A DNA stretch of 64,000 nucleotides from an uncultured Gemmatimonadota bacterium (GCA_902825965.1 CADEDA010000003.1:157149-221148), one strand, 5' to 3'. Shown: positions 29,247 through 57,094, counted from the first letter of the stretch. A program made the numbers and translations. Notes: a model not told the origin generated them from the sequence alone.

Positions 29247-29274
29247 CCCGACGCGCGCGGGGCGTGCCGCGGGC

Positions 29275-31975: not shown

Positions 31976-32592
31976 GTGTCCCACGTGATCTACGCCTTCG
32001 ACGGCTTCATCCCGGTGGTCCACGAGTCGGCCTTCGTGCACCCGCAGGCCACCGTGACCGGCAACGTGATCATCGGCCGCGACGTGTACGTCGGCCCCGG
32101 GGCCGCGATCCGCGGTGACTGGGGCGGCATCGTGATCGAGGACGGCTGCAACGTGCAGGAGAACTGCACGGTACACATGTTCCCCGGCGTGACGGTCGTG
32201 CTCGAGCGCGGCGCACACATCGGACACGGCGCCGTGGTGCATGGGGCGCGGATCGGCGCCAACGCCCTGGTGGGCATGAACGCGGTGATCATGGACAACG
32301 CGACGGTCGGGGCCGGCTCCATCGTCGGGGCGCTGAGCTTCGTGCCCGCCGAGATGGCGATCCCCGAGCGCAGCGTGGTGGTGGGCAACCCCGCCCGCAT
32401 CGTGAAGCAGGTGAGCGATGCCATGCTCGCGTGGAAGTCGGAGGGCACCGCCCTCTACCAGCAGCTCCCGGCCGCGATGCGCGCCTCCTGGCGCCCCGTC
32501 GAGCCGCTCCGTGAACTCCCCGCCGACCGCCCCACGCAATCGGCGATCCTCAAAGCATGGCACGAGACCAAGTCCGTGCCGGAGACCACCTG

Positions 32593-32593
<1 letters not shown>
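31976..32593 (+). CDS. paaY: Phenylacetate-degradation protein PaaY (gamma-carbonic-anhydrase/hexapeptide-repeat thioesterase)
   Basis: Colinear with E. coli PaaY: IYAFDG..PVV.E.AFVHP.A...G.VIIG..VYVGPGA..RGD.G.IV..DG.N.Q.NC..H, and VEPLRE near the C-terminus. GTG start at 31976 or 31985. Confidence 0.85.
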
Positions 32594-34635
<2,042 letters not shown>

Positions 34636-39337: not shown

Positions 39338-39819
39338 ATCCTGCGACCACGGCCACGCCCTCGGACTGCGCTGCGCAGTGCGTGTTGCACAGTCGTCGGC
39401 GGTTCCTCTCCCAGGCGCTCATGGCCTCAGTGGGCGCGGTGCTGCTGGAAGCCTGCGGTGACGGCCAGATCGGCCTCACCGGACCCGGTGGCGGGGACCT
39501 CGACGCGGCGGTGCTGGTCACACTCGCGGAGTATCCGGCACTCGCGACGGTGGGTGGCATCGCGCGCGTGACGACCGGCAGCAGCCGCCGGCCGATCGCC
39601 GTCGTCCGCACGGCCGTGGACACGTACGTCGCGGTGAGCATGGTGTGCGCCCACCAAGGGTACCGCCCCATCGAGATCGTCGGGGCGGGCTTCATCTGTC
39701 CCAATCACGGCGCCGAGTACTCGGCGACCGGGCAGTGGACCGGCGGGCAATCCGCCGGCAACCTGCGTCAGTACGCCGTCGCCTTCGACGCCGTGGCGGG
39801 GACGCTCACCATCAGTTGA
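39334..39819 (+). CDS. Tat-exported Rieske [2Fe-2S] domain protein (possible lipoprotein)
   Basis: Twin-arginine signal SRRRFLSQALMASVGAVLLEACG. Rieske ligand boxes CAHQG and CPNHGAEY. Confidence 0.8.
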   Translation: MNPATTATPSDCAAQCVLHSRRRFLSQALMASVGAVLLEACGDGQIGLTGPGGGDLDAAVLVTLAEYPALATVGGIARVTTGSSRRPIAVVRTAVDTYVAVSMVCAHQGYRPIEIVGAGFICPNHGAEYSATGQWTGGQSAGNLRQYAVAFDAVAGTLTIS

Positions 39820-42721: not shown

Positions 42722-42874
42722 GGGACCCGGCTGGTGGGAAGGAACGACGGGGTGACGCGGATGTGTAGGCAGGGAGCCGATTTCGCGGCAAGATACGCCG
42801 CCCGCGATCGCTCCTGCCACCTTGCGGACTCGACGCTCGCGAACGGTTGACGTATCCGTTACCATCATCGAGTG

Positions 42875-43114
42875 ATGAATCGGCGCCTCCAAACCTACGA
42901 AGGTCACGGCATCACTGTGACTTTTGACCCGGAACGCTGCACACATTCAGCAAAATGTGTGCGCGGCCTTCCCGCCGTCTTCGACGTCAAACGCAAGCGC
43001 TGGGTCGACGTCACGGCCGCCACCGCGGACGAGATCGAGGCCCAGGTGGCGCGCTGTCCCTCCGGGGCACTGCAGTGCACCCGTTCATCAACGCCGGACC
43101 CCGCGGGATCGTAG
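42875..43114 (+). CDS. Small divergent 4Fe-4S mono-cluster-type (Fer4_19-like) protein
   Basis: 79 aa with GITVTFDPERCTHSAKCVRGLPAVFD...RCPSGAL, the cysteine spacing typical of this small family. Confidence 0.55.
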   Translation: MNRRLQTYEGHGITVTFDPERCTHSAKCVRGLPAVFDVKRKRWVDVTAATADEIEAQVARCPSGALQCTRSSTPDPAGS

Positions 43115-43173
43115 TCCCCGCATCGACGTGCGGTGCTGCCGCACGAGTTCCTTCGGCCCTCGCGACTGATTCC

Positions 43174-45240
43174 GTGCCCCACTCGCGCGTCTCTTCCGCC
43201 GCGACCCGCGCCTACGCCACGCTGCCGCTCGCCGCGCTGCTGCTCGCCGCGCTGCTGCTCGCCGCGCTCGTTTCGCCGCTGTCCGCCCAGCAGGTGCCGC
43301 CGCGCGACAGCAGCGCACAGACGATCGAACCCCAGGTCGTCCGCGGCGCACGCGGCGCCACGACCGTGGGAGGTGCCTCGGCCGTCATCGTCCGGCCGGA
43401 CTCCGCGCGCCTCGCGCCCGCACCCACGCTCGGCGACCTGCTGCGCACCATTCCGCTGGTCCTCGTGCGCACCAACTCGCGGGGGGAGATCGAACTCTCC
43501 GTGCGCGGCTCCGAGAGCCGTCAGGTCGGTGTCGCGCTCAACGGACTGCCGCTCTCGCCGGGCTGGGACGGGCGCGCCGACCCGGGCCTCATCCCGCTCA
43601 CCGGCATCTCGCAGGTCTCCTATGTGCGGTCCACGGCCACCGTGCTCGGCGGGCCGAACACCTTGGGCGGCATGCTCGACCTCTCGCTCGACGCCGCACC
43701 CGCGGAGCGCCGCGAACAGCAGCTCTCGCTGGGCACCGACCACACGGGCGCACGGCTCGCCTCGGGCGGTGTCGCTGCCACCCGCGACCTCGGACACTCG
43801 CAGCTCTCGTGGCGCGTGGGCGCGGGGCTGCGGCAGCGCGACGGACTGGTCATCGCGAAGGGCGTGGTCGATCCCGTCGCCGGTGCGGAGCTCCGCAGCA
43901 ACACGGATTCACGTACCGCGGACCTGTTCGCGTCGCTGGGATGGCGTTCGGCCAACGGTGCCGCCGTGAGTGCCATGGCCAGCGGGTATGACGCCATGCG
44001 CGGCGTGGCCCCGGAGCTTCATCTCAGCGCACCGCGCTACTGGCGCTACCCGGAGCAGTCACGGCGCCTCCTTCAGGTGCGCACAAGCCTGCCGCGCCTG
44101 CACTCGGCACTCGGCACGACGGAGGTCGAGGTCGGCGGCGGCGTGCTCCGCGGGACCACCCGCATCGCGACGTTCAGCGATGCCACCTACACCACGCAGA
44201 GCGGGTCCGAGGCCGGCGAAGAGCAGGTGAACAACGCCCGCCTCGCACTCACGCAGACCTTCGCCCGCGGCGTGCAGCTCAAGGCGGCGGTCACCGGGAA
44301 CAACATTCTCTACGACGAGACGCTCAACGCCGCGGCCGCCGCGCACTATCGTCAGGACCTCATCAGTGCGGGCGTCGAGACCAGCTTCATCCTCGGGACG
44401 CGCACGCTGGTGAGCGGCGGCGTCGTGCTCGACCAGGCGTCCTCGATCGCCGCCGGGGGACGCCCCCCGCTCGCGACCAAGGCGCTGACGGGCTTCCGGC
44501 TGGGCGCCACGCATCAGCTGAGCGCCACGGCGCGCCTGCATGCGAGTGCCAGCAAGCGCGGCCGATTCCCTGCGTTGCGGGAGCTGTACTCGGGTGCGGT
44601 CAATCGGTTCGAACCCAATCCGGACCTCCGGCCCGAGAACCTGCTCGCCACCGAAGCCGGGGTCTCGTTCGGCGATCCGACGACGCAGGACGGCCTCAGC
44701 CTGCAGTTCGTCGGGTTCCACCATTGGCTGGACGACGGGATCGTCCGCACCAACTTCGGGGCCACCAACCGATTCATCCGCATCAATCGTGACGAGACCC
44801 GCACGGCGGGCCTCGAGACCATGCTGAGCTGGTACGGTGCGACGCCCGGCCGCAGCCTCACACTCGACCTCGTCGCGCAGCAGGTGCGCATCCGCGACGC
44901 CGCCGCGGGCGGCCCGACGCGCAAGCCCGAGCACATGCCGGACTTCCGCGCCATGCTCGACGGCACCGTGCCGCTCGGCCGCGGTGTGATCATCGGGGCG
45001 AACCTCTCCCACATCGGGAGCCAGTTCTGCGTCAACCCGAACTCGGGGCGCGATGCGCGCCTCGACGCGCAGACCGTCAGCGCCATCACCGCCCACCGCA
45101 GCCAGCCGGTGCACCTGGCGGGCTTCCGCTCACTGCGCATCCTCGCCGGGGTCGACAACCTCACCGACGCCGCCGTGTATGAGCAGTGCGGCCTCCCGCG
45201 CGCCGGCCGCACGGTTCGGATCGGGTTCGACCTGCATTAG
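43174..45240 (+). CDS. TonB-dependent outer-membrane receptor
   Basis: Signal LPLAALLLAALLLAALVSPLSAQ. Plug motifs (LGDLLRTIPLV.VR....GE.ELSVRGSESRQV.V.LNG.PL) and beta-barrel repeats follow. The start is uncertain (GTG at 43174; the track start at 42955 overlaps the previous gene). Confidence 0.8.
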   Translation: MPHSRVSSAATRAYATLPLAALLLAALLLAALVSPLSAQQVPPRDSSAQTIEPQVVRGARGATTVGGASAVIVRPDSARLAPAPTLGDLLRTIPLVLVRTNSRGEIELSVRGSESRQVGVALNGLPLSPGWDGRADPGLIPLTGISQVSYVRSTATVLGGPNTLGGMLDLSLDAAPAERREQQLSLGTDHTGARLASGGVAATRDLGHSQLSWRVGAGLRQRDGLVIAKGVVDPVAGAELRSNTDSRTADLFASLGWRSANGAAVSAMASGYDAMRGVAPELHLSAPRYWRYPEQSRRLLQVRTSLPRLHSALGTTEVEVGGGVLRGTTRIATFSDATYTTQSGSEAGEEQVNNARLALTQTFARGVQLKAAVTGNNILYDETLNAAAAAHYRQDLISAGVETSFILGTRTLVSGGVVLDQASSIAAGGRPPLATKALTGFRLGATHQLSATARLHASASKRGRFPALRELYSGAVNRFEPNPDLRPENLLATEAGVSFGDPTTQDGLSLQFVGFHHWLDDGIVRTNFGATNRFIRINRDETRTAGLETMLSWYGATPGRSLTLDLVAQQVRIRDAAAGGPTRKPEHMPDFRAMLDGTVPLGRGVIIGANLSHIGSQFCVNPNSGRDARLDAQTVSAITAHRSQPVHLAGFRSLRILAGVDNLTDAAVYEQCGLPRAGRTVRIGFDLH
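43228..43268. repeat. 15-bp tandem repeat (ctcgccgcgctgctg, ~2.7 copies) inside the receptor signal peptide
   Basis: Two identical units at 43228-43242 and 43243-43257, plus 11 nt of a third. They encode (LAALL)n. Confidence 0.85.
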
Positions 45241-45339: not shown

Positions 45340-46002
45340 ATGCCTGTCCTCGTTCCGATCCTCGCGCTGCCGCAGGGCGCCGTCTCCGGTACTCCGGCGC
45401 CACTGCCCGGGCCGCCGCCGCCGCCAACCTCGAACCCGTCGGCGATCTACGAGGGGTTGGTCAACCAGCGCAACGTGCTCCGGTCGCAACTCGACGACCT
45501 GAGCGAGCTGCGACAGGAGGTCCGCCGCGAGATGAACTCGGCGGTCGGCGACGTGGACAAGACGGGCTTGGAGCAGCGACTCAACGGCGTCGACGTGCGC
45601 ATCGCGCAGGTCACGATCCAGCTCGCCGAGGTGGATGCCAAGGTGGCCGTCGCGGCGGGGGTGCCCGGCGCGATCGTGGACACGCCACCGCCGTTCGAGC
45701 CCGGCAATCGCGACGAACTCATCGCGATGGGCATCGCGTTCGGGACGCTGCTCTCGCTTCCGATCATCATCGCGTACGCGCGCCGCATCTGGAATCGTGG
45801 TGGGGCGGCGCCGGCGGCGTTGCCGCAGGACGTCTCCGAGCGGATCCGCGCGATGGAGCGCTCGCTCGACGCGGTGGCGGTGGAGGTCGAGCGCATCGGC
45901 GAGGGACAGCGATTCGTCACGCAGTTGCTCGCTGCCCGCGCCGAAGAGGCGAAGGTGGCCCTGCCAGCCTCGCGCGATCGCGCCGAGCCGCGGACGCCGT
46001 AG
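45340..46002 (+). CDS. Hypothetical single-pass membrane protein with coiled-coil segments on both sides of the TM
   Basis: Pro-rich N-terminus, heptad-like LRSQLDDLSELRQEVRREM, TM segment LIAMGIAFGTLLSLPIIIAYA, and a second helical region. High GC3. Confidence 0.55.
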   Translation: MPVLVPILALPQGAVSGTPAPLPGPPPPPTSNPSAIYEGLVNQRNVLRSQLDDLSELRQEVRREMNSAVGDVDKTGLEQRLNGVDVRIAQVTIQLAEVDAKVAVAAGVPGAIVDTPPPFEPGNRDELIAMGIAFGTLLSLPIIIAYARRIWNRGGAAPAALPQDVSERIRAMERSLDAVAVEVERIGEGQRFVTQLLAARAEEAKVALPASRDRAEPRTP

Positions 46003-46080: not shown

Positions 46081-47187
46081 GTGACTGCGACGCTTCCGCC
46101 GATCAATCCACGTCAGCGGACGGCGCTGCTGCGCTGGTGCGCGCCGCAGCGGCCGTCAGGCGCCGCCCCGCCGCTGGACGCCCGGGAGTGGTCGGAGCTG
46201 GTGGACGTCGCCACCGCACTCGGCGTCGCTGGCTACCTGTTCCTGAACCTGCGTGCGGACCCCGCACACGCCGGCATGCCCGCGGACGTCTGGTCGCGAC
46301 TCAGCGCCACCTACTACGCCTTTGCGGCCGCAAATGCCGAGATCCTCGCCGGGCTCGGACCCATTCTCGAGGCCTTCGATCAGCGTGGCATCCGCGTGAT
46401 CGTGTTGAAGGGGGCCGCGCTCGCGGAACTCGTACACGGCAACGTCGCGATGCGCCCGATGTTCGACGTGGACCTGCTGGTGGCCGAGTCGGATGTGCCG
46501 TCCGCTGCGGCGCTGCTCGCGTCGCAGGGATTCGTGCCGGACGAACGCTACCGTCCCGCGGAATGGTACGAGCAGGAGCTGCATCACCTCGCACCGTTCC
46601 GTCGCGGGCGCCTGACGATCGAGTTGCACCGCGAACTGCTGCCGCCGTGGGCGCCGCTTGCCGCCACCACGGCGGAACTCTGGGCGCGTGCGGAGCCGCG
46701 GGCGATCGCGGGCGCCAAGGCCATGGTGCTCGAAGCCCATGACTTCCTGCACCACGTGGTGCTGCACGCCGCACACTCGCACCAGTTCCTGCGCGGCCTG
46801 CGTGACCTTCACGACCTCGATGTACTGCAGCGCAGTCTCGGCGCGCGGCTCCAGTGGGAGACCGTGTTGGCACGGAGCGGCGGGGCGGAACGCGCGTGGC
46901 TGGCCGTCCTCGGGTTCCGGGAGCGACTGGGACTCGACCGCGCCCCGTCCGGGGTTGTTGCCGCCCTGCGTCGGCGCGGGCGCGTGGGACGCCTGGAGCG
47001 CGTGATGCTCGGCTGGGCGGCATGGCCGCTGCTCACGTACACGGGCGGGGGCGGCCTGCTGCCAGCGTGGATGCGCCGCATCGCGGTGATGCTGCTCCTG
47101 GAGCGTCGCGGCTGGGCGTCCCGACTCCTGCGGTTCGTGCGGCTGGTCGCCGACGCGCGGAAAAGCGACGAGGCGGCGAGGGCCTGA
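46081..47187 (+). CDS. Uncharacterised nucleotidyltransferase family protein (NTP_transf_5 / PF14907-like)
   Basis: IRVIVLKGAALAELVHGNVAMRPMFDVDLLVAESD..AAALLASQGF is the family's hallmark K-G...R...D-x-D-L-L-V block. GTG start. Confidence 0.75.
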   Translation: MTATLPPINPRQRTALLRWCAPQRPSGAAPPLDAREWSELVDVATALGVAGYLFLNLRADPAHAGMPADVWSRLSATYYAFAAANAEILAGLGPILEAFDQRGIRVIVLKGAALAELVHGNVAMRPMFDVDLLVAESDVPSAAALLASQGFVPDERYRPAEWYEQELHHLAPFRRGRLTIELHRELLPPWAPLAATTAELWARAEPRAIAGAKAMVLEAHDFLHHVVLHAAHSHQFLRGLRDLHDLDVLQRSLGARLQWETVLARSGGAERAWLAVLGFRERLGLDRAPSGVVAALRRRGRVGRLERVMLGWAAWPLLTYTGGGGLLPAWMRRIAVMLLLERRGWASRLLRFVRLVADARKSDEAARA

Positions 47188-47225
47188 GCCCCCGCCGCCT
47201 CGTGGACTGGCGTGACCAGCGGCGA

Positions 47226-47390
47226 CTAGATGTCGTCGCTGCCACCGGCGTCGGAACCGGTCTGCGCGAGCGAAGCGCGCGGGATCCCCACCGCGAGCAC
47301 GACCGGAACGATCCAGCCAGCGCGCAGGAGCGCCCGGCGGCTTACCTTGGTCTCCGCCGCGGACGCCAGTGCGTTCAACTCTTTCTCCAT
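47226..47390 (-). CDS. Unlisted 54-codon gene: twin-arginine (Tat)-type signal peptide followed by a ~12-residue acidic Ser/Gly tail (MEKELNALASAAETKVSRRALLRAGWIVPVVLAVGIPRASLAQTGSDAGGSDDI)
   Basis: My own translation of the minus strand. The ATG (47390-47388) is preceded by GGGGGGAG directly upstream of the ATG. GC3 is ~85% (46 of 54 codons), close to the real genes here. S-R-R-x-L-L-R, then a hydrophobic stretch, then A-S-L-A/Q. It is below the apparent ~60-aa floor of the supplied ORF track. Confidence 0.6.
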   Translation of the reverse strand: MEKELNALASAAETKVSRRALLRAGWIVPVVLAVGIPRASLAQTGSDAGGSDDI

Positions 47391-47624
47391 CTCCCCCCCG
47401 GAACATGTGAACCCACACGTGCACCCACCCTCGTGGCCGAGGACCGCAATCGTGGTGCCGTCCCGTCAGTTTGCCGTAAGTGACTGTGGGTGAATAAGTT
47501 GGGTTGTATCGGCAGGTCTCGTAACTGCTGCGTCGGTGCCACAGAATGTCGGTGGCCACCCCGTGTTGCCTGAAGCCTGCACGCATCGTTCATCGCTCGA
47601 GCCCCCATCCAACTTCCACACCCG

Positions 47625-47951
47625 ATGTCGCCGAACGAAGTGCCGGATGACCAGCCCCTCGCGTTGCCGTTTGACGCGACGAGCGCCACCACACCGCGCC
47701 GCGCCGCGGGCGTCCGCGAGTTCCCCCTCGGCACCGAGGATCTTCTGCTCTTCGCGGAGGGTCGCCAGGTCGTGCACACGCTCAATCTTTCCGCCTGGGC
47801 GGTCTGGGACCTCTGCGACGGGAGCCGCAGCGTCGAGAGCATCGCGGCGGAACTGGCCGCCGAGGTGGGGCGTCCGGTCGCCGAGATCGAGCGCGACGTC
47901 CTGAGCACGGTGCAGCAACTCGGCAGTCTCGGGCTCCTGCTGGCCTCGTGA
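47625..47951 (+). CDS. PqqD-family protein (RiPP recognition element-type peptide chaperone)
   Basis: 108 aa. HTLNLSAWAVWDLCDGSRSVESIAAELAAEVGRPVAEIERDVLSTVQQLGSLGLL matches the PqqD pattern (LN..A..IW.L.DG..t..eI...L...). Confidence 0.8.
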   Translation: MSPNEVPDDQPLALPFDATSATTPRRAAGVREFPLGTEDLLLFAEGRQVVHTLNLSAWAVWDLCDGSRSVESIAAELAAEVGRPVAEIERDVLSTVQQLGSLGLLLAS

Positions 47952-48772
47952 CGGGTCAGGCGGCGGCGGTCGGCCGCGTGCGCGTCGGATTCCGGTCAGT
48001 CGCCGTGACGGTCGAGTCCGAGGCGCCTGAGGTCACCGCGGACTTGGCACGGGTGTACCGGCATCTGCCGGCGCCCGACGCCGCGCCGTCCGCCGTGACA
48101 CTTCGGATCCGGGCGAGCGAGGCCGGATTCGACTGTCTGGGTGCGGCGGGTGGGGCCGTGCGCCGGCCGACCACGCGCATGGCCGTCCGCTGGGCTCGGT
48201 TCCAGATCCTGGCCTCGCTGATCGAGCATCACCCGGCGCTGCTCTGGATGCACGGTGCCGTCGCCGCGCTCGGCGATCGCGCGGTGCTGCTCCCCGGTCG
48301 GCGTGGTCGCGGCAAGAGCACGCTCGTATCGGCGCTCTGCATGCGCGGTTGGCGCTACCTCTCCGACGACGTGGTGCCGCTGGATCCCGCGACCATGCGC
48401 GTGCAGCCGTTTCCGCGCGTGCCGGAGCTGCGGCGGGACCCCGGCCGTGACATGCCCGCCGCCTGGCTGCTGGACGTTCAGAAGGAGGAGGTGCCGATCG
48501 ACGAGCGGGTGGAGCGGCATCCCCGGCCCGTCGCGGCGATCGTCCTGCCACTCGCCCAGCGTGACGGCGGGGTGGGGATCGCGCCTGCCCGCGCTCCGGA
48601 GCTGCTGGGGGAGATCGCCCAAGGCTGTTGGAACTTCGCCGCACACGGCGTCGGCGGGGCGGCGGCCTTGGGTGCACTTCTGCGCGGGAGCCGGCTGGCG
48701 CACCTGCGGTTCGACGACGCCGCGGCGGCGGCGGCGGCGCTCGAGCGCTGGCTGGACTGGTCGGCCGAATGA
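47948..48772 (+). CDS. HPr kinase/phosphorylase C-terminal-domain-like P-loop protein (HprK-related kinase)
   Basis: HGAVAALGDRAVLLPGRRGRGKSTLVSALCMRGWRYLSDDVVPLD parallels the HprK core HG.L....G.GVLI.G.SG.GKSE.AL.L...GH.LV.DD. The GTG start overlaps the PqqD stop. Confidence 0.75.
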   Translation: MTGQAAAVGRVRVGFRSVAVTVESEAPEVTADLARVYRHLPAPDAAPSAVTLRIRASEAGFDCLGAAGGAVRRPTTRMAVRWARFQILASLIEHHPALLWMHGAVAALGDRAVLLPGRRGRGKSTLVSALCMRGWRYLSDDVVPLDPATMRVQPFPRVPELRRDPGRDMPAAWLLDVQKEEVPIDERVERHPRPVAAIVLPLAQRDGGVGIAPARAPELLGEIAQGCWNFAAHGVGGAAALGALLRGSRLAHLRFDDAAAAAAALERWLDWSAE

Positions 48773-48920
48773 CGCCCCCTCTCGCCCGACGGCGTGGCCA
48801 ACTATAGAGTAGAGGAGCGGTGTGACCGCCCGCACAGCGCCGCGGGCCGGCGCACGGTCACACTGCAGCCACGCACGCGGGACGCCACGGATGCCTGTCA
48901 TACTTCGTGACAGAGCCATC

Positions 48921-48936
48921 GTGCACTCGTGTTGCA
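48921..48936 (+). promoter_or_regulatory. Sigma54-like -24/-12 element upstream of the pilin operon (imperfect)
   Basis: GTGCAC-tcgtg-TTGCA against the consensus TGGCAC-N5-TTGCA. The spacing is correct, but the first G of the GG doublet is T. It ends 42 nt before the ATG. Confidence 0.3.
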
Positions 48937-48977
48937 GACGTCGCATACTGGCGTCTCTACCTCGGAGTACCGCAGGC

Positions 48978-49580
48978 ATGTTCAACCAGGACAATCCTTT
49001 GGCTCAGCGCAGTCGGCGACCCATCGTCCGTCGCGGCTTCACCATCGTCGAGTTGCTGACGGTGATGGTGATCTTCGGCCTGCTCGCCGCGTTCGCGGCG
49101 CCGCGGATCGACGTCGCGCGTTTCCGGGTGAACAGCGCCGCGCAGGTGATGGGCACCACGATGCTCACGGCGCAGCGGCAGGCGGTCACGCAGCAGCACA
49201 ACATCATCGTGCGGTTCGCCGAGGACCAGAACCGGCTGCGCATCCACGAGGATCGGAACAACAACAACACCGTCGACACCGGGGAGCACGAGCGTTCCGT
49301 GCAGCTGGGTGAGGGCATCGTGTTCGGACGGACGACGGCGCCGGCGATGGCGATGGGGACGGCGAACGTGACCTTCACGCGCACCATCGGCGGGTTGAAG
49401 GCGGTGACCTTCCATCGGGACGGCTCGGCGAGCGAGATGGGCGGGTTCTACATCACCTCGCTGCGGGCCTCGTCGAACAACAACACGCCCGAGGACGCGC
49501 GGGCGGTGGTGGTGGAGCGGGCGACTGGCCGCACCTCCTGGCACCGCTATCGCTCCGACGGCTGGCAAAAGGTGTTCTGA
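48978..49580 (+). CDS. GspH/FimT-family minor pseudopilin
   Basis: Prepilin N-terminal methylation motif RRGFTIVELLTVMVIFGLLAA, ~200 aa. Confidence 0.8.
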   Translation: MFNQDNPLAQRSRRPIVRRGFTIVELLTVMVIFGLLAAFAAPRIDVARFRVNSAAQVMGTTMLTAQRQAVTQQHNIIVRFAEDQNRLRIHEDRNNNNTVDTGEHERSVQLGEGIVFGRTTAPAMAMGTANVTFTRTIGGLKAVTFHRDGSASEMGGFYITSLRASSNNNTPEDARAVVVERATGRTSWHRYRSDGWQKVF

Positions 49581-49954
49581 TGAAGACGCGCGGGGGATTC
49601 ACCCTGATCGAGATCGTGATGGCGATGGCCATCCTGCTCATCGTGATGCTCACACTGGTCACGATGACGGGCCGCGCCGTGCACGTGAGCACGATCGCCG
49701 AGCGTGAGCAGGCGGCGATCCAGATGGCGACCGACCGGACGGACGAGGTGCGCACCAACCCCTCGTACGCCGCGCTGGACAGCCTGTACGGCGGCACGGA
49801 GAACAGCTTCCCGACGCTGCCGGGCTTCACGCGCGTGACGACCATCCAGCGCATCACGGCCAATGGGCAGGACTACAAGAAGGTGACGGTGACGGTGAAC
49901 GGCCCGGGGCTCGCGGCCCCGATCTCTCGAACCATCGCGGTGGCAGCGCCATGA
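49580..49954 (+). CDS. PilV-like type IV minor pilin
   Basis: RGGFTLIEIVMAMAILLIVM prepilin motif, 124 aa. Its start overlaps the previous stop. Confidence 0.75.
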   Translation: MKTRGGFTLIEIVMAMAILLIVMLTLVTMTGRAVHVSTIAEREQAAIQMATDRTDEVRTNPSYAALDSLYGGTENSFPTLPGFTRVTTIQRITANGQDYKKVTVTVNGPGLAAPISRTIAVAAP

Positions 49955-51123
49955 CCCGACTCTCGATGCGTGCTCGTCCCGGCCTCACGCTGATCGAAAT
50001 GATGATGTCGCTCGTCATCTTCTCGTTCGTGGTGGCGGGAGCCGTCCTCCTCCTCCGCTCGGAGAGCCGCAGCTTCTCGCTCGGCTCCGAGCGCGTGGCG
50101 ATGTACCAGAACGGGCGCTTCGCGCTCAACGAGATGGAGAAGGACCTCCGGACCTCCGGCGCAGGCGCGCCGGACGTGCAGCCGCACCTGATCTACATCG
50201 CCGACAGCGTGATCGTCTTCAACGCCAACTATTGGACGAACACCGCCGGCGACGTCGAGGCCGTCTATTACAACCCGGATGCGCCGGACTCGGCCGTCAC
50301 GGCGCTGACGACGTCGACCAAGATCACGCTGCCGCACACCAGCATCCAGTACCCGGACACGAACTACCGCGTCGGTGCCGTGAACTCGGCGTCGGAGACC
50401 ATCAGCTTCTACTTCGCGCGTGATGCGAGCACGGCCCGCACCGACGACTGGATCCTGTGGCGTCGGGTGAACAACCTCGCGCCGGAGATCGTGTCGACGA
50501 ACATCGCACGCATCGACTCGACCGCCTTCTTCACGTACTTCCGGGTGCGCACCACCACCGGCGGCGTCTCGTCGATGCAGCAGGTGGCGGCCAACACGCT
50601 GCCCTGGCGGCACACGGTGCCGATCCACCTCTCCATCAACGATACCGGCGCCAACGCCCGCATCGACAGCATCCGCGCGGTCCGCGTCGCGTTCTCGGTC
50701 TCCAACGGCAAGTCCGGCTCGGAGGAGCGGTTCCGCACGCTCTCCCGCCTCATCCGGCTGCCCAACGTGGGGCTCGCCAACACCCGCAGCTGCGGTGACG
50801 CGCCGATCTTCAGCGCCACGCCGAGCGTGGCCAACATCATCCTGCCCGACAGCGTGACCCGCGCCGTGCGGCTCCAGTTCGTGCGGTCGGTGGACGAGCT
50901 CGCCGGTGAGCGCGACGTGGAGCGGTACGTCGTGTGGCGGCGCATCTCGCCCGCCACCGACTGGGGTGACCCCTTCGTGACCGTCCCCGGCGGTGACTCG
51001 CTCAACACGTACATCGACGCCACCGTGACGAGCGGCCTCACGTATCGCTATGCGGTCTCGGCGCAGGACTGCACGCCGACGCTGTCCGGACAGCAGTTGT
51101 CCGCTGAAATCACGATCCCGTGA
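49951..51123 (+). CDS. PilW-like type IV minor pilin with a C-terminal FN3-like extension
   Basis: RPGLTLIEMMMSLVIFSFVVAG motif. The C-terminal ~90 aa (VRLQFVRSVDE...RYVVWRR....W..P...V......Y.D..V..G.TYRY.V.A.D) looks fibronectin-III-like. ATGA overlap with the previous gene. Confidence 0.7.
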   Translation: MTRLSMRARPGLTLIEMMMSLVIFSFVVAGAVLLLRSESRSFSLGSERVAMYQNGRFALNEMEKDLRTSGAGAPDVQPHLIYIADSVIVFNANYWTNTAGDVEAVYYNPDAPDSAVTALTTSTKITLPHTSIQYPDTNYRVGAVNSASETISFYFARDASTARTDDWILWRRVNNLAPEIVSTNIARIDSTAFFTYFRVRTTTGGVSSMQQVAANTLPWRHTVPIHLSINDTGANARIDSIRAVRVAFSVSNGKSGSEERFRTLSRLIRLPNVGLANTRSCGDAPIFSATPSVANIILPDSVTRAVRLQFVRSVDELAGERDVERYVVWRRISPATDWGDPFVTVPGGDSLNTYIDATVTSGLTYRYAVSAQDCTPTLSGQQLSAEITIP

Positions 51124-51149
51124 GTCTTGACGTGAACCTCGGAGTCCCG

Positions 51150-52973
51150 ATGTCCCCTCGCCCGCAGCTCAAGAACCGACGCGGTATCGCGCTGATCGTG
51201 GTGCTGATGGTCGCCCTCGCGGTGGCCGCCATCGCCTCGGGCGCGACCTTCCTGTCGCTCAACACGTCGCTCGTCAGCACCTACCACAGCCGCCTGAGCG
51301 TGCTGGAGAGCGTGGCCGATGCCGGGCTGGAGCAGGCGCGCTCGGCGATGAATGCGAACGACTCGCTGTACCCGGACTCCGGGTACGTCACGTATGAGAA
51401 CGGGGTCTCCGTCACCGACGCCTCGGGCAACGCGATCCCTGGCGTGACGCGGTGGACGTACGTGGGACCGTCCGGCGTGACCTCCGGCCAGTACGGCGTG
51501 TTCGGCAGCGTCGTCACCGTGGTGACCGACGGGTCGGGCAACCGCATCGTGCGGCGCCTCGAGGTGCTGCAGGAGAGCTTCGCCAAGTACGCGTACTTCA
51601 CGGACTTCGAAGGCTCCATCGTCTTCGGCGCCAACGACGTGCTCTACGGCCCGGTCCACTCGAACGACGGCATCACCATGCAGGCGGCCGCGCCCGGCGC
51701 GACGTTCTGGGGCCTGGTGAAGACCGCGGAGACGATCACCAACCGGAGCTCGGGCAACTACAACGCCGGGTACCAGGAGAACGTGCCGGAGATTCCGTTC
51801 CCGCAGACCCAGGAACTCACCCGGCTCTTGGCGCAGGCGACGGCGGGCGGCACCAACTTCACCAGCTCCACGGCCGGTGACTCCTCGAGTGCGACGATGC
51901 GCATCGAATTCGTGGCGCTCGACCTCAACGGTGACGGCGACTCCACCGACACCGACGAAGGCTTCATGAAGATCTACCGCGTGACGAACAACTCGAACTA
52001 CTGGTACGTCACCGCGGACACCACCGGCAACTTCGGCACCAACGGCTTGGCGCGCTCGTGGAACTGCGGGCACATCAGCGCCAGCGGCACGGGGTCGCAT
52101 TCGACGTTCCGGACTTTCCGTCGCCACCAGACGGGCACATCCCAGGACCGGGCGACCTGGGCCACGCAGAACGGCACCTCGCGCACCTGCTACCTGGGTG
52201 GCTCCAACATCCTGAATGACTGGACGTCGCCGGCGGGCAGCTTCCTCGCGACGGACTCGCTCGGCTCCTGGGTCGCGTGGACCGGAACCGTGGATTCGCG
52301 CGTCGCCAGCGCGCGCCCGGCGGACAATGCGTACCTCTGGCCGATCTCGCGCGCCCTGAACCCGAACTTCAAGGGTGTCATCCACGTGACCGGCAAGGTG
52401 GCGATCAGCGGGAAGTTCCGCGGCTCCGTCACGCTCGCGGCCACCGGCAACATCATCATCGTCGACAACCTCACCTACGTCACCAACCCCGGCGGCACGA
52501 CCCCCTGCAACTCGCCGGTGCGCGACATGCTGGGGATCTTCAGCGGGGCGGACGTCATCGTCGCCGACAACCTGGTGAACGCCCCGTACCGTCCCGTCAC
52601 GGGACAGCCCTACCGCACGTGGCGACCCAACGGCTCGGATGAGACCATCCACGGCGTGGTGCTCGCGCTCAACCAGTTCCGCGCCGAGAACCACAACATC
52701 GATCCGCAGGACGTCGAGGACTGCTCGGGCGCGAACAACGCCCGCGGCTGCCTCTACCTGACCGGCGGCATCATCCAGCAGAACCGTGGCCCGGTGGGTC
52801 AGGTGAACGGCCGTGGCTACATCAAGCGCTACCAGTACGACGCCTGCGCGGGCCTGAACCCGCCGCCGTACTTCCCGACAACCGGTCACTTCATCCGTGG
52901 CCACTACTACGAAGTCGAACCGACGAACTTCAGCATCTCCAGCTTCTGGCCGCTGCTCGTCCCGGCACCCTGA
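51150..52973 (+). CDS. PilX-N-terminal-domain protein, oversized (~607 aa), putative pilus-tip/adhesin-like
   Basis: RRGIALIVVLMVALAVAAIASG, followed by the PilX_N-like LSVLESVADAGLEQARS. GGAG lies 5 nt upstream of the ATG at 51150. An Asp-rich DLNGDGDSTDTDEG Ca-binding-like loop is present. Confidence 0.7.
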   Translation: MSPRPQLKNRRGIALIVVLMVALAVAAIASGATFLSLNTSLVSTYHSRLSVLESVADAGLEQARSAMNANDSLYPDSGYVTYENGVSVTDASGNAIPGVTRWTYVGPSGVTSGQYGVFGSVVTVVTDGSGNRIVRRLEVLQESFAKYAYFTDFEGSIVFGANDVLYGPVHSNDGITMQAAAPGATFWGLVKTAETITNRSSGNYNAGYQENVPEIPFPQTQELTRLLAQATAGGTNFTSSTAGDSSSATMRIEFVALDLNGDGDSTDTDEGFMKIYRVTNNSNYWYVTADTTGNFGTNGLARSWNCGHISASGTGSHSTFRTFRRHQTGTSQDRATWATQNGTSRTCYLGGSNILNDWTSPAGSFLATDSLGSWVAWTGTVDSRVASARPADNAYLWPISRALNPNFKGVIHVTGKVAISGKFRGSVTLAATGNIIIVDNLTYVTNPGGTTPCNSPVRDMLGIFSGADVIVADNLVNAPYRPVTGQPYRTWRPNGSDETIHGVVLALNQFRAENHNIDPQDVEDCSGANNARGCLYLTGGIIQQNRGPVGQVNGRGYIKRYQYDACAGLNPPPYFPTTGHFIRGHYYEVEPTNFSISSFWPLLVPAP

Positions 52974-55588: not shown

Positions 55589-55765
55589 GCGCCCCGTGCT
55601 CGGTTAAGTTCCGATTACGGGCCGAGCAGGGGTGATGCGCCGCCGTGTACCTGAGGTTAGGGTATCGGCGGCGCAACCCATTCCGGGGTTGTGGTGTCCT
55701 ATTGCACGTGCCATCCCCCGGGGTGGCGCCACGCGCCCAGTCCCCACCCTCCGGCGAGACCCCGT

Positions 55766-57094
55766 ATGGCCCTCTCGTTCAGCCGTCGCACGCTCATCGT
55801 GCTTGCCGTGCTCGTCGTCGGCGCCCCGACCGCCTGGTTGCTCGCCCGCCCGCCCGAGGAGGCCGGCGCCGCGCTGACCGCGACGGCCAAGAAGACGCCC
55901 TTCATCGTGACGGTGACGACGGCCGGCGAGTTGCGTGCGAGTTCCGCGGTGCAGATCCAGGGCCCGCAGGAGATGCAGCGTGCCGGGGCGTTCCAGGTCA
56001 AGATCGCGTCGCTGGTCCCCGAGGGCACCGTCGTGAAGGTCGGCGACCTCGTCGCCGAGCTCGATCGCTCGGCCCTCGCCCAGCGACTGCAGGAGACCTC
56101 GCTGGCGGTGCAGAAGGCCGAGGCGGTGAACGAGCAGGCGATGCTCGATTCCACGCTCAACCTGTCGAAGGCGCGCGAGGACATGCGCACGATGGAGCTG
56201 GCGCTGGAGGAGAAGCGCCTGGCCAAGGAGCAGGCGGTCTACGAGGCGCCCACGGTCAAGCGGCAGGCGGAGATCGACCTGGAGAAGGCGGAGCGTGCGC
56301 TGGCGCAGGCCAAGCTCGACTACAAGACGAAGGTGGAGCAGGCGCAAGCGAAGATGCGCGAGGTGGGGGCGGACCTGCAGCGCCAGAAGAACCAGCTCGA
56401 GGTCGTGCAGAAGGTGATGGGGGAGTTCACGATCCGCGCACCGGCGCCGGGCATGGTGATCTACCAGAAGGAATGGAACGGGAAGAAGCGCGCCGTCGGC
56501 TCGCAGATCGGCGCCTGGGATCCCACGGTCGCCACGCTGCCGGACCTCACCAAGATGGAGTCGATCACCTACGTCAACGAGATCGACATCAAGAAGGTCG
56601 CGGTGGGCCAGCCCGTCGCGATCACGCTCGACTCCGATCCGACCAAGAAGCTGAGCGGCAAGGTGGTGCAGGTGGCGAACGTCGGGGAGCAGCGGCCCAA
56701 CACCGACGCCAAGGTGTTCGAGGTGAAGGTGCTGCTCGTGGGCGTGGACACCACGCTGCGCCCGGGCATGACCACGGGCAATGCGATCGAGACCACGGTG
56801 CTCACGGACGTGGTGTCGGTGCCGCTGGAGGCGGTCACCTCGATCGAGGACGTGCCCTACGTGTTCAAACGCTCCGGCGGCCGCCTGATCAAGCAGGAGG
56901 TCGAGACGGGCGCGATGAACGACAACGACGTCGTGATCGTGAAGGGGCTCGCGGAGGGTGAGGAGGTGCTGCTGGTGCCGCCGGCGGACGCCAACACGAT
57001 GGCGGCCACGCGGTTGCCGGGATCGACCCGCGGCCTGCCGGCCAAGGGCGGCGACACCTCCAAGGCTGCGCGCCCGGTCCCGCCCGGTGCGTGA
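55766..57094 (+). CDS. Periplasmic adaptor (membrane-fusion protein, MacA/HlyD family)
   Basis: N-terminal anchor, a long coiled-coil hairpin (LQETSLAVQKAEA...AQAKLDYKTKVEQAQAKMREV), and a beta-barrel domain (ITLDSDP.KKLSGKVVQVAN). Confidence 0.85.
   Translation: MALSFSRRTLIVLAVLVVGAPTAWLLARPPEEAGAALTATAKKTPFIVTVTTAGELRASSAVQIQGPQEMQRAGAFQVKIASLVPEGTVVKVGDLVAELDRSALAQRLQETSLAVQKAEAVNEQAMLDSTLNLSKAREDMRTMELALEEKRLAKEQAVYEAPTVKRQAEIDLEKAERALAQAKLDYKTKVEQAQAKMREVGADLQRQKNQLEVVQKVMGEFTIRAPAPGMVIYQKEWNGKKRAVGSQIGAWDPTVATLPDLTKMESITYVNEIDIKKVAVGQPVAITLDSDPTKKLSGKVVQVANVGEQRPNTDAKVFEVKVLLVGVDTTLRPGMTTGNAIETTVLTDVVSVPLEAVTSIEDVPYVFKRSGGRLIKQEVETGAMNDNDVVIVKGLAEGEEVLLVPPADANTMAATRLPGSTRGLPAKGGDTSKAARPVPPGA

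Follow-up and report, generated by a model that had tools for sequence, protein, structure and literature searches.

A lasso-free cassette of RRE, kinase-like and NTP_transf_5 genes with an adjacent peptide gene in Gemmatimonadota: a Gram-negative cousin of linear polyphosphorylated peptide systems

Described systems and how the locus compares

HprK-like kinases and NTP_transf_5 enzymes first became known as tailoring enzymes of lasso peptides. There, the linear precursor is phosphorylated by an HprK homologue, and the phosphate can be decorated with hexoses by the nucleotidyltransferase PsmN (PMC8498205). A lasso-free combination of an RRE, an HprK-like kinase and an NTP_transf_5 protein has been reconstituted for the linear polyphosphorylated peptides (LPP), encoded by lppA-K-B-S-D-N of Paenibacillus alginolyticus, and polyphosphorylation of the precursor was demonstrated (Popov et al., Nat Commun, May 2026; PMC13381572). 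The modified residue is Ser3 of the linear precursor, whose core begins A-Q-S; LppK rejected Thr or Tyr in place of this Ser, and deletion of LppN had no detectable effect (PMC13381572). The family is defined by a marker, the SipW-like (archaeal-type) signal peptidase LppS, and its K, B and N genes are defined in the supplement by the same Pfam/TIGRFAM labels as the three enzyme families of the locus described below, the kinase by weak TIGR04352/TIGR04249 matches (PMC13381572). LPP are described as confined to Bacillota, where they often share a genome with lasso clusters, and their distribution is noted by the authors to be patchy and HGT-like, a trait typical of conflict genes; the discrete RREs of both lasso and LPP systems bind the motif [Y/W]xxPx[L/V/I/A/F/Y] (PMC13381572).

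In 64 kb of DNA from an uncultured Gemmatimonadota bacterium (GCA_902825965.1 CADEDA010000003.1:157149-221148; hereafter the window), positions 46081-48772 hold a real, self-contained cassette, which is a Gram-negative cousin of the Bacillota LPP systems, the closest known to it. Its gene content, motifs, folds and conservation as a quartet across phyla are established directly. Like LPP, it is lasso-free and combines a discrete PqqD-type RRE with an HprK-like kinase and an NTP_transf_5 protein; in both families the N-terminal part of the precursor is conserved and the C-terminal part hypervariable, the leader contains [Y/W]xxPxV, and a hydroxyl residue follows the cleavage site by 2-3 positions (A-Q-S3 in LPP; Q-T/S/Y after the Ala that ends the predicted leader in the window family). 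Whereas LPP clusters encode the SipW-like LppS and an MsbA-like exporter, LppD, neither is found in the window or as a conserved neighbour. The WxxPxV of the window family also lies in a twin-arginine signal-like leader, unlike the YxxPxVLxHQxIxFETxxS of LPP: xxPxV is kept, Y becomes W, and the HQxIxFETxxS part gives way to a signal-like ...P[RK]xA[LF]A followed by Q[STY]. Further, the family is found in Gemmatimonadota and further Gram-negative phyla, not in Bacillota, the Ser3 equivalent is often Thr or Tyr, both of which LppK rejected, and the cores in the clade of the window span only 10-37 aa.

The paeninodin (PadeK) and pseudomycoidin (PsmK/PsmN) systems likewise pair an HPr-kinase homologue with an NTP_transf_5-type enzyme, and phosphorylated or phosphoglycosylated lasso peptides share the PqqD-family RRE and the WxxP leader motif. 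Unlike these, the window lacks genes for a macrolactam synthetase, a B2 protease and an ABC-D exporter, and where their acceptor is a C-terminal Ser, the last residue is Ile in the window peptide and F, L, V, T or S in its relatives. The HprK-like/PqqD-like pairing also recurs in SynChlorMet cassettes (HprK-like ScmC, PqqD-like ScmD and two radical SAM/SPASM proteins), and the window kinase has a weak precomputed match to PF27840 'ScmC' but none to TIGR04249. An NTP_transf_5 gene here takes the place of the radical SAM/SPASM genes, and a SynChlorMet assignment was rejected, as ScmE/ScmF are absent and no Radical_SAM protein is encoded in the window.

The cassette, its enzymes and its surroundings

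The three enzyme ORFs reported in an initial annotation of this DNA are all present, and a peptide gene lies among them on the opposite strand:

46081-47187, plus strand: NTP_transf_5 (Pol-beta-fold nucleotidyltransferase; PF14907), 368 aa, counterpart of LppN/PsmN
47226-47390, minus strand: putative precursor peptide gene, 54 aa, MEKELNALASAAETKVSRRALLRAGWIVPVVLAVGIPRASLA followed by QTGSDAGGSDDI
47391-47624: spacer of 234 bp that separates the peptide gene from the divergently oriented PqqD-kinase pair
47625-47951, plus strand: discrete PqqD-family RRE (PF05402), 108 aa, counterpart of LppB and lasso B1
47948-48772, plus strand: HprK/PEPCK-fold P-loop kinase-like protein, 274 aa, counterpart of LppK/PadeK, translationally coupled to the RRE gene

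The GC1/GC2/GC3 pattern of the three enzyme ORFs is that usual for genes of this window (~70% GC). Translational coupling of the RRE and kinase genes is borne out by the GTG start at 47948, which overlaps the TGA stop at 47949-47951 in a 4-bp GTGA; the same overlap occurs in the gene calls of two related loci (L002 and L003). This overlap, together with PqqD::kinase, NTP_transf_5::PqqD and glycosyltransferase::PqqD fusions in relatives, points to an RRE that is physically coupled to its enzymes. The spacer is presumed, solely from the gene arrangement, to be a divergent promoter region; neither a sigma-70-like site nor an Rfam match was found in it.

Family searches confirmed the PqqD assignment (PF05402, E=7.5e-15; 55.4 bits, cutoff 23.4) and placed the NTP_transf_5 protein far above its cutoff (PF14907, E=1.8e-49; 169 bits, cutoff 31.2). 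A profile built from 12 cassette PqqD sequences matches PqqD structures (5sxy, 1e-9), the lasso RREs TfuB1 and TbiB1 and, as a further likeness to LPP, the whole length of LppB (9x8z_B, 1.4e-5); the best NCBIfam matches of the window protein, PQQ_PqqD (32.4 bits) and geo_PqqD_fam, are both under cutoff. The nucleotidyltransferase keeps the hG[GS]...DxD motif, with K110-G111, R125, D129-x-D131, H183 and D245 invariant among 17 homologues. Its AF2 model, which is only moderately good (pLDDT 69.7), has its best PDB matches in three O-nucleotidylyltransferases (ANT(2'')-Ia, MenT and LnuA) and in FKRP, a phospho-alcohol transferase.

The kinase-like protein scores under every curated family cutoff: Hpr_kinase_C (PF07475) gives 19.9 bits against 33.3, TIGR00679 15.6 against 240, and TIGR04352 (HprK_rel_A) 76.9 against 200 over residues 93-158 only (66 residues). 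Assignment to HprK/P proper, which calls for a full-length TIGR00679/PF07475 match above cutoff, was rejected. In a profile of 14 homologues, nevertheless, H102, the Walker A G117-S124 and D140/D141 align with their HprK/P counterparts (His, Walker A and 'DD') in the structures 2qmh/1jb1/1ko7, over H...GxxGxGKS...DD, and H102, G117, R119, G122-K123-S124 and D140 are invariant. The AlphaFold model (AF2, mean pLDDT 90.4) finds ATP-dependent PEP carboxykinases (PEPCK, E=4e-5) and HprK/P as its best PDB matches with Foldseek, and the protein thereby combines a PEPCK-like P-loop fold with the three active-site elements, Walker A, the catalytic His and Asp-Asp. The earlier HprK-like label thus stands as to fold and active-site residues, which support an HprK/PEPCK-fold kinase-like protein despite the weak sequence scores, and falls short as to PF07475. 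Judged from their kept motifs and folds, kinase and nucleotidyltransferase are likely to be catalytically competent. An exhaustive search recovered 314 representative kinase clusters with full-length matches at E<=1e-30; among the matches listed, several are ~370-400 aa long and have ~105-130 N-terminal residues ahead of the kinase match, and PqqD::kinase fusions were confirmed in two loci (L031 and L035).

TIGR04352 ('HprK-related kinase A') and TIGR04353 ('HPr-rel-A system PqqD') are what we take to be uncharacterised comparative-genomics models. The former is the best-scoring curated model for the window kinase and all relatives tested (61-96 bits for eight from related loci), and the P-loop/DD core is common to both groups. 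The 'HPr-rel-A system' membership suggested in the initial annotation could not be upheld, because the window kinase and its relatives lie far under the 200-bit cutoff and the window PqqD protein has no TIGR04353 match at E<=0.01; the window kinase and its relatives form a sister group for which no curated model exists.

Pfam scans that covered essentially every gene of the 64-kb window found no Asn_synthase (lasso macrolactam synthetase), no Transglut_core3 or related B2 leader peptidase, no ABC ATPase (ABC_tran), no signal-peptidase family, SipW-type included, and no Radical_SAM; nor is a SipW-like peptidase found as a conserved neighbour in related loci. Earlier statements that cyclase and B2 protease are missing hold for the full 64 kb. 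That no ABC exporter lies within 15 kb is right as regards the ABC ATPase, but 'no exporter' is too strong, as an operon for HlyD, a MacB-type permease and an outer-membrane factor (OEP) lies 7 kb downstream (55691-59950) and a MATE pump at 21781-23457; ABC genes recur in just 3 related loci. The suggested link to the downstream pilin operon is doubtful, since this operon lies near the cassette in just one other locus (L010), and the operon is probably unrelated. A 220-aa protein encoded upstream has only a marginal match to PbeC (PADLOC, E=0.005).

A peptide family with a conserved leader and a hypervariable tail

Starting from the kinase, we collected 33 GTDB loci, to which context look-ups added two metagenome contigs. 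In 23 loci other than that of the window, spread over about six phyla (host groups: Gemmatimonadota, Verrucomicrobiae, Scalindua, Thermodesulfobacteriota, cyanobacteria and Alphaproteobacteria), homologues of the 54-aa ORF adjoin PqqD, kinase and NTP_transf_5 genes, which bears out the earlier suggestion of a substrate gene inside the cassette and answers its call for a neighbourhood survey with a conserved small-ORF family. A peptide HMM picks exactly one or two small ORFs adjoining PqqD/kinase per locus in these 23, and over ~700 kb of six-frame ORFs it matched nothing apart from cassette-adjacent ORFs; the set comprises 24 peptide ORFs in all, two of them in one locus (L004). Gene orders vary (NTP5> <pep PqqD> kinase> versus pep> PqqD> kinase> NTP5>), as do the flanking genes, and a search based on the peptide recovered the same arrangement in the loci L038 and L039. 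The cassettes of most related loci include an NTP_transf_5 homologue, which was not found in the 5.8-kb contig of L004.

The peptide gene is real on the grounds of its coding-like codon-position GC (GC1/2/3 = 0.69/0.53/0.85) and the synonymous excess in its leader, where codon differences are mostly synonymous (e.g., 15 synonymous versus 4 non-synonymous), a pattern that indicates purifying selection; a gene call on an independent contig also includes the ORF. The peptide has no match among Pfam or NCBIfam families. Its features, all on the minus strand, are:

47390-47265: leader
47339-47334: twin-Arg of the leader
47315-47298: W-I-V-P-V-V of the leader
47264-47229: predicted core, QTGSDAGGSDDI, 12 aa

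The conserved N-terminal order is [ST]RRxL[VLIM][KR]A, W-x-x-P-x-V, a small-x-Ala site and Gln, ahead of a hypervariable, low-complexity tail, a RiPP-type architecture. R18, R19, W26 and P29 are invariant in a 16-sequence leader alignment; in the wider set the twin-Arg position is RR in 20/24 peptides and KR in 4/24. All 24 contain WxxPx[LVIAFY], which fits the [Y/W]xxPx[L/V/I/A/F/Y] bound by discrete lasso and LPP RREs, and 23 of 24 have the small-x-A site, followed by Q in 17/23 and then by S/T/Y in 15/23, with Thr and Tyr frequent at the position equivalent to LPP Ser3. Tails of relatives are 10-16 aa and Gly/Ser/Asp-rich, or long Pro/Thr, His/Asp or Thr/Gly repeats; Pro/Thr/Ser tails co-occur with a 2OG oxygenase and glycosyltransferases, and His/Asp tails with a radical-SAM enzyme and a methyltransferase.

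Proposed modification and export, and competing explanations

Positions 46081-48772 are likely an RRE-guided modification cassette of precursor, RRE, kinase and nucleotidyltransferase that acts on the adjacent precursor. The earlier proposal of a self-contained, non-lasso peptide system gains support, in that homologous trios keep the small ORF and LPP is a reconstituted analogue; the accompanying remark that such trios have no known substrate or function is outdated for this nearest analogue (PMC13381572). The chemistry we propose draws on knowledge of the families. The 54-aa precursor would be made from the minus strand, and its leader bound through W26-x-x-P29-x-V31 by the PqqD-type RRE, which would present the short acidic Gly/Ser/Thr-rich C-terminal part to the coupled HprK-fold kinase. 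Close to where leader and core meet, the latter may phosphorylate a hydroxyl side chain, perhaps more than once, the best candidates being the Thr at +2 or the Ser at +4, and by analogy we lean towards such a step. The NTP_transf_5 enzyme could then transfer a nucleotidyl, glycosyl or phospho-alcohol group to the phosphate or to a different hydroxyl.

As neither a peptidase nor an exporter of its own is encoded in the cassette and the leader is Tat-like, we tentatively propose that the modified precursor exits by the housekeeping Tat (or Sec) pathway, with the housekeeping signal peptidase I cutting after ...SLA to release a 12-residue modified peptide; such a Tat/signal-peptidase route is possible, though we would not count on it. 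The family leader comprises an n-region of 15-19 aa, [ST]RRxL[VLIM][KR]A, an h-region of 12-13 aa and P[RKT]xA[LF]A, and that of the window reads SRRALLRA, GWIVPVVLAVGI and PRASLA. Judged by inspection only against the Tat criteria (S/T-R-R-x-F-L-K-like motif, uncharged h-region of at least ~12 residues, AxA), it has the RR motif, a 12-residue hydrophobic stretch, a basic c-region residue and an A-x-A-type site. The S-R-R-x-L-L/V-K/R is close to the S/T-R-R-x-F-L-K consensus, and the moderate hydrophobicity of the 12-13-aa h-region, the basic c-region residue and the AxA site are likewise those of Tat signal peptides; PhoD, a canonical Tat substrate (with MDRRHFLT), is encoded in the window. 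Tat leaders are bound by established chaperones, the REMPs such as TorD and DmsD, and the RRE might act in a comparable proofreading role until modification is complete, being a small cytoplasmic protein predicted to bind a leader before export; it is, however, a wHTH RRE and not a TorD-family protein. The cargo would also differ, a modified peptide of 10-37 aa instead of a folded cofactor enzyme, and 10-16 aa is unusual for Tat. Alternatively, the RR, hydrophobic stretch and AxA could serve enzyme recognition or membrane anchoring alone.

The same leader features raise the question of whether any modified product is made, since the small ORF might be an ordinary exported or membrane-anchored protein whose signal peptide is gated for export (e.g., by Tat) through phosphorylation or nucleotidylylation by the trio. 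The full twin-arginine layout and the existence of Tat-leader-binding chaperones fit this, as do two loci: one contig (L040) in which a Hint-domain protein of ~190 aa carries the same leader and the trio is missing from the surrounding 2.2 kb, so that the leader can also occur apart from the cassette, and L035, where an 825-aa FG-GAP protein with a Tat-like RR leader adjoins the PqqD::kinase fusion and an NTP_transf_5 gene. Yet the tails co-vary with lineage-specific tailoring genes, which argues for modification of the tail and not of the signal, and in LPP the core is the substrate (PMC13381572); we hold export control to be unlikely. Still less likely, and in our view very much so, is a detached lasso tailoring module, for which cyclase, B2 protease and true precursor would be encoded at another place in the genome, the small ORF being no substrate. 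The first recognition of HprK-like and NTP_transf_5 enzymes as lasso tailoring enzymes (PMC8498205), the WxxP motif common to lasso leaders and the frequent co-occurrence of LPP and lasso clusters in Bacillota genomes (PMC13381572) speak for it, and a PqqD-type RRE with a matching leader motif (W-I-V-P-V-V) is indeed present. Against it, the window has no Asn-synthase-like or transglutaminase-like gene, no ORF with the cyclase PP-loop motif SGGxDS lies in it or within 10 kb in the related loci L001-L036, and the small ORF stays with the trio when gene order changes and from one phylum to the next. The predicted core of the window is 12 aa long, the cores of relatives share no consistent lasso ring pattern (Gly/Ala/Ser/Cys1 to Asp/Glu7-9, with a tail able to thread), and a lasso peptide cluster as such was rejected.

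Two further readings seem to us highly improbable. In a conflict system (toxin-antitoxin or anti-phage), a MenT-like nucleotidyltransferase would work with the P-loop kinase, the PqqD protein and small ORF being incidental; the nucleotidyltransferase model resembles MenT toxins among others, and the patchy, HGT-like distribution of LPP is typical of conflict genes (PMC13381572), but that model is equally like antibiotic O-nucleotidylyltransferases and FKRP, and none of the four cassette proteins has a PADLOC family match. RRE fusions and a peptide with conserved leader and variable core are hallmarks of RiPP pathways, and these too count against it. Decay of the cassette, with the kinase-like protein a non-catalytic remnant, could account for kinase scores under all curated cutoffs, but it sits poorly with intact ORFs, catalytic motifs that are invariant across 14-17 homologues, purifying selection on the peptide leader and the breadth of full-length kinase matches (314 representative clusters).

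Gene content and folds of the cassette

We found a compact cassette of four genes, all within 2.7 kb, in which a minus-strand precursor ORF of 54 codons is accompanied by plus-strand genes for an NTP_transf_5 protein, a PqqD-family RiPP recognition element (RRE) and a kinase-like protein.

Gene order around the cassette, from the ORF list and a codon-position GC filter (window GC about 70%)
42955-45240: TonB-dependent receptor
45340-46002: 220-aa protein, function unknown
46081-47187, plus strand: NTP_transf_5 gene (Pfam E = 1.8e-49, above the gathering score)
47226-47390, minus strand: 54-codon precursor ORF
47625-47951, plus strand: PqqD gene (Pfam E = 7.5e-15, above the gathering score)
47948-48772, plus strand: kinase-like gene, its GTG start overlapping the TGA stop of the PqqD gene
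48822-52973: four prepilin-type genes, directly 3′ of the cassette

The trio recognized in the initial annotation (NTP_transf_5, PqqD and kinase-like genes) is real, with two members secured by Pfam and the kinase by alignment, profile and fold. The kinase-like protein scores below threshold against Hpr_kinase_C (19.9 bits, cutoff 33.3) and reaches 76.9 bits against TIGR04352 (cutoff 200) over residues 93-158 only; the curated cutoffs reject membership of TIGR04352/TIGR04353, and hence the earlier assignment to the 'HPr-rel-A system', and we likewise reject HprK/P proper as its identity. In a 14-sequence kinase alignment, H102, G117, R119, G122-K123-S124 and D140 are invariant, and in a comparison using the profile of these sequences they fall on the His, the Walker A motif and the Asp-Asp pair of HprK/P proteins with solved structures. 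The nearest folds to its AlphaFold model (pLDDT 90.4) are ATP-dependent PEP carboxykinases and HprK/P, two groups that have the PEPCK-like P-loop kinase fold in common. An HprK/PEPCK-fold kinase is a well-supported prediction for the 47948-48772 product. An exhaustive HMMER search returned full-length kinase matches from 314 representative clusters (50% identity) at E ≤ 1e-30; among the matches listed, several are about 370-400 aa long, with the match beginning after about 105-130 N-terminal residues, and PqqD::kinase fusions were confirmed at L031 and L035, two of the related loci (L001-L040) found by kinase or peptide searches.

The NTP_transf_5 protein keeps the KG...DxD signature of Pol-beta-fold nucleotidyltransferases, and its model looks like O-nucleotidylyltransferases (ANT(2′′)-Ia, LnuA), MenT toxins and FKRP, which transfers ribitol phosphate. 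This model is of moderate quality (pLDDT 69.7; built on 4 sequences) because the word-indexed searches yielded few homologues (6 matches for the peptide, 3 for NTP_transf_5). The cassette PqqD profile matches LppB of the linear polyphosphorylated peptides (LPP) (9x8z_B, full length), TfuB1, TbiB1 and PqqD itself.

Pfam searches of essentially all genes in the 64-kb window detected no Asn-synthetase-like enzyme, transglutaminase-like protease, signal-peptidase-like protease, radical SAM enzyme or ABC ATPase. The absence of the lasso core is thus upheld and a lasso cluster, with its C and B2 genes, is rejected, as is a SynChlorMet cassette, there being no radical SAM enzyme. The accompanying statement that no exporter is present holds for the ABC ATPase and needs qualifying for an HlyD/MacB-type permease/outer-membrane-factor operon (55691-59950) and a MATE pump (21781-23457), neither of which accompanies the cassette at other loci. 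Window positions 44-50 kb yielded nothing usable in promoter/terminator and Rfam scans.

The predicted precursor peptide and its leader

The 54-aa ORF has a coding-like composition (GC1/2/3 = 0.69/0.53/0.85) and is called as a gene in an independent assembly. Two homologous kinases (46-49% identity) lie among unrelated flanks in the same context of NTP_transf_5, a minus-strand ORF of 53-59 aa, PqqD and kinase, and these ORFs are clearly homologous to that of the window; two further short contigs with this arrangement were recovered from the peptide side. Scanning the kinase alignment against one genome per GTDB species gave 33 loci, distributed across Gemmatimonadota, Verrucomicrobiae, Ca. Scalindua, Thermodesulfobacteriota, heterocystous cyanobacteria, Alphaproteobacteria and Acidobacteriota. 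Phmmer and HMM searches with the peptide over every six-frame ORF of at least 25 aa at all loci detected one or two small ORFs per locus at 23 loci besides the window, all adjoining the PqqD/kinase genes, and no homologues away from them. A self-contained, non-lasso modification system, as originally proposed, is therefore essentially right, and the conserved precursor strengthens the case beyond what could be known from the window sequence at that stage. Neighborhoods were clustered on a GC3-aware gene call, since high-GC loci are otherwise swamped by antisense ORFs. Many loci have the order peptide, PqqD, kinase and NTP_transf_5 on one strand; as the order is not fixed and the flanking genes differ, the linkage of peptide and trio is functional, beyond synteny. 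The peptide-first scan with a 7-sequence alignment retrieved 4 short metagenome contigs and no more. One related locus, L004, has two peptide genes (1602-1892 and 2080-2265), both of which look intact and differ in their tails, and another, L002, has a second copy (9193-9393) with a degraded leader (MIRQRALVRAGVDRAGG...).

The N-terminal ~42 residues of the peptide are conserved and the remainder is hypervariable. In the window clade, a polar n-region of 15-19 aa is followed by [ST]RRxL[VLIM][KR]A, a 12-13-aa hydrophobic h-region opening with G-W-x-x-P-x-V, then P[RKT]xA[LF]A, usually Gln, and a tail of 10-37 aa rich in Gly, Ser, Thr, Asp and Asn (in the window, QTGSDAGGSDDI). WxxPx[LVIAFY] is present in 24/24 peptides, the twin-Arg position is occupied by RR (20/24) or KR (4/24), and 23 of the 24 have a small-x-Ala site, after which the next residue is Gln in 17 and the one following it Ser/Thr/Tyr in 15. 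Discrete RREs of lasso and LPP pathways hold their leaders by the motif [Y/W]xxPx[L/V/I/A/F/Y] (PMC13381572), of which W-x-x-P-x-V is, judged by sequence, an exact instance. By inspection, the whole leader also has the tripartite layout of a twin-arginine signal, including the basic c-region residue and the AxA site. At 62486-64000, a PhoD-like phosphatase begins with MDRRHFLT, a canonical twin-arginine sequence, which points to use of the Tat pathway by this organism.

Relation to LPP clusters and a candidate mechanism

LPP were described in Bacillota by Popov et al. (Nat Commun, 20 May 2026; PMC13381572), who discovered them by following a SipW-like peptidase. LppS is this peptidase; the clusters further encode LppB (a discrete RRE), LppK (an HprK-like kinase), LppN (an NTP transferase) and LppD (an MsbA-like exporter), with the NTP transferase given as NTP_transf_5 and the RRE as PqqD in the supplement; the precursors combine a conserved N-terminal YxxPxVLxHQxIxFETxxS with variable C-terminal parts (PMC13381572). 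In a core that begins A-Q-S, LppK loads Ser3 with as many as four phosphates, LppS removes the leader only when it is presented by the RRE, and deletion of LppN had no visible effect (PMC13381572). The 'HprK kinase' label there derives from RODEO hits to TIGR04249, TIGR04352, TIGR04355 and TIGR00679 (PMC13381572), weak curated-model hits of the same sort as those of the window kinase and its relatives. In lasso pathways, HPr-kinase homologues phosphorylate the linear precursor, and PsmN, a nucleotidyltransferase, decorates the precursor phosphate with one or two hexoses (review PMC8498205).

The window cassette shares the K/B/N gene set of LPP, and its peptide resembles the LPP precursor in its conserved leader, variable tail and xxPxV part, but the cassette lacks the signal peptidase (SpI) and MsbA, the two features used to find LPP, and its leader departs from the specific LPP consensus; accordingly, we file it as an LPP-like variant outside LPP proper. 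With LPP now described (PMC13381572), the cassette is less unprecedented than it had seemed. LPP and paeninodins are restricted to Bacillota according to their authors (PMC13381572), whereas the loci collected here, as read from sequence, would extend the set of RRE, HprK-like kinase and NTP_transf_5 to at least six other phyla, Gram-negative ones, with a different kind of precursor whose distinct leader may serve two purposes. Literature searches on HprK-related kinase A, NTP_transf_5, SynChlorMet and Tat plus RiPP leaders found nothing relevant.

The window is probably best explained by an LPP-like cassette in which a precursor with a leader of Tat-type signal form accompanies the RRE, the kinase and NTP_transf_5. 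Its gene content, linkage, motifs and folds are established by the sequence analysis, and from them and the known analogues we infer each chemical step and the export route, as follows. The RRE would bind WIVPVV in the leader, and the coupled kinase would phosphorylate a hydroxyl close to where the core begins, with Thr +2 and Ser +4 as candidates by analogy with LPP Ser3. The NTP_transf_5 enzyme would elaborate the phosphorylated product, and the modified precursor would be exported and cut after ...SLA by housekeeping machinery. Four points count against this scheme: a 12-aa cargo would be unusual for Tat; deletion of LppN, the NTase of LPP, had no visible effect (PMC13381572); LppK rejected Thr and Tyr at position 3 (PMC13381572), which by analogy would weigh against the proposed kinase step; and at L040, a 2.2-kb contig, the N-terminus of a ~190-aa Hint-domain (intein/hedgehog-like) protein (1323-1907), encoded next to ybaB-recR, is this same leader (IRRALIRAGWVLPVVLA...TAFAQY), with no PqqD, kinase or NTase detectable on the contig.

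That the trio is instead a detached tailoring module of a lasso pathway is unlikely, given that there is no cyclase in the 64 kb or within 10 kb at the related loci L001-L036 and that the peptide travels with the trio. An export-control device, in which the trio acts on the signal peptide itself, is a less likely reading and fits poorly with tails that co-vary with lineage-specific tailoring genes. A defense or toxin system finds no support, PADLOC having given no defense-system match for the four cassette proteins, and the catalytic motifs are invariant and the leader is under purifying selection, which contradicts decay of the cassette. Leader codons differ mainly by synonymous changes, for example 15 synonymous and 4 non-synonymous between the window and the related locus L003.

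Beyond the LPP-like cassette itself, we entertain, with rather more doubt than conviction, that it is the minimal member of a large unrecognized Gram-negative RiPP-like superfamily, in which one segment is both RRE-binding leader and twin-arginine signal, housekeeping Tat/signal peptidase replace the dedicated peptidase/exporter, the RRE is an export-proofreading chaperone, and tailoring sets and tails vary by lineage. Such sets and tails would be added around an invariant core of RRE, HprK-like kinase and NTP_transf_5. Prolyl-hydroxylase-like 2OG oxygenases and hydroxyproline-arabinosyl-, GlcNAc- and fucosyl-transferase-like enzymes would act on Pro/Thr/Ser-rich tails to yield extensin- or mucin-like bacterial glycopeptides; radical SAM enzymes and methyltransferases would act on His/Asp-repeat tails, possibly giving metal binders; and the window type would have short acidic Gly/Ser tails and no extra enzymes. 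If true, the dual use of the leader would be a new logic for RiPP maturation. Genome mining for a protease/transporter beside an RRE would miss clusters of the window type. The 2.7-kb quartet offers an unusually small and directly testable system for the role of NTP_transf_5 and the purpose of linear phosphopeptides.

Tails and tailoring genes of relatives, and neighbors of the cassette

On the Oricola sp. chromosome NZ_OZ246003.1 (L014:6384-15444), the leader is joined to Pro/Thr/Ser/Ala-rich repeat tails in a larger operon, a layout also seen in the alphaproteobacterial relatives L018, L020, L022-L028 and, partly, L029. The operon includes genes for a 430-aa protein that starts with PqqD, a 692-aa fusion of O-FucT-like and HprK-like parts, a prolyl-hydroxylase-type 2OG-Fe(II) oxygenase, a PF11397 GlcNAc-transferase, a hydroxyproline-O-arabinosyltransferase-like part fused to PqqD, an NTP_transf_5 enzyme and another PqqD. 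From its domains, this operon looks like RRE-guided hydroxyproline glycosylation in bacteria, and its plant-like hydroxyproline-glycosylation enzymes fused to RREs would be of separate interest. At one Gemmatimonadota (L009:5248-8735) and one Thermodesulfobacteriota locus (L017:6189-9627), the tails are His/Asp-rich repeats of 172-177 aa (e.g., HADTHNDHGDHSDHGD), and a radical SAM enzyme and a methyltransferase-domain protein, homologous between the two, lie directly 5′ of the peptide gene; their products may be metal binders. Heterocystous cyanobacteria (L013:166-2836, L016:1-1584, L019:7656-10007) have NTP_transf_5 and PqqD fused in proteins of ~530-550 aa, and the L013 and L019 tails are Thr/Gly repeats (43% Thr). 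In more distant relatives (L035:3114-8560 and, similarly, L031, L033 and L036), PqqD is fused to an HprK-like part (389-405 aa in all) and an NTP_transf_5 gene comes next. Encoded 5′ of these at L035 is an 825-aa protein of FG-GAP repeats, whose twin-arginine-like N-terminus (TSRREVLTKA...) is a different one; homologues of this large protein (the C8 cluster) occur at L031, L033 and L035 and are absent from L036. The substrate in such loci may be a full-size protein.

The four products of the prepilin-type (N_methyl) operon at 48822-52973 are a GspH/ComGD-like protein, a PilV-like protein and two more of 390 and 617 aa. One other Gemmatimonadetes MAG has a homologous operon (L010:6672-10599), about 3 kb away from its cassette; the other loci lack it. 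Functional links of the cassette to the prepilin operon, to the TonB receptor and 220-aa protein, and to a radical-SAM/186-aa pair near the cassette in L002 and L003 were rejected, because none recurs with the cassette save the prepilin operon in L010; the pilin connection raised in the initial annotation is thus doubtful, and we treat the pilin operon, TonB receptor and 220-aa protein as unrelated neighbors.

In the 55691-59950 operon, a MacB-type permease (MacB_PCD + FtsX) is accompanied by an HlyD-like adaptor and an outer-membrane efflux protein, and no adjoining ABC ATPase gene was detected; L003 has, near its cassette, a complete MacB/ABC operon that includes a homologous adaptor. A 2002-aa ORF (11-6019) with strong coding statistics (GC3 0.92) and one weak, sub-threshold Pfam hit (Big_1, 23 bits) encodes a giant protein of unknown type, and a 1044-aa protein on the minus strand (39812-42946) has Lamin-tail, Big_2, Endonuclease_NS (non-specific endonuclease), PKD and FIMAH domains. 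Genes at 16184-34635 resemble a phenylacetate/fatty-acid-type catabolic cluster, with two PaaA/PaaC-family proteins, enoyl-CoA hydratases, a 3-hydroxyacyl-CoA dehydrogenase, a thiolase and an aldehyde-dehydrogenase::MaoC fusion. The N-terminal half of a long minus-strand ORF there (23482-27012) is probably not real, because it overlaps two plus-strand genes (25630-26421 and 26423-27616).
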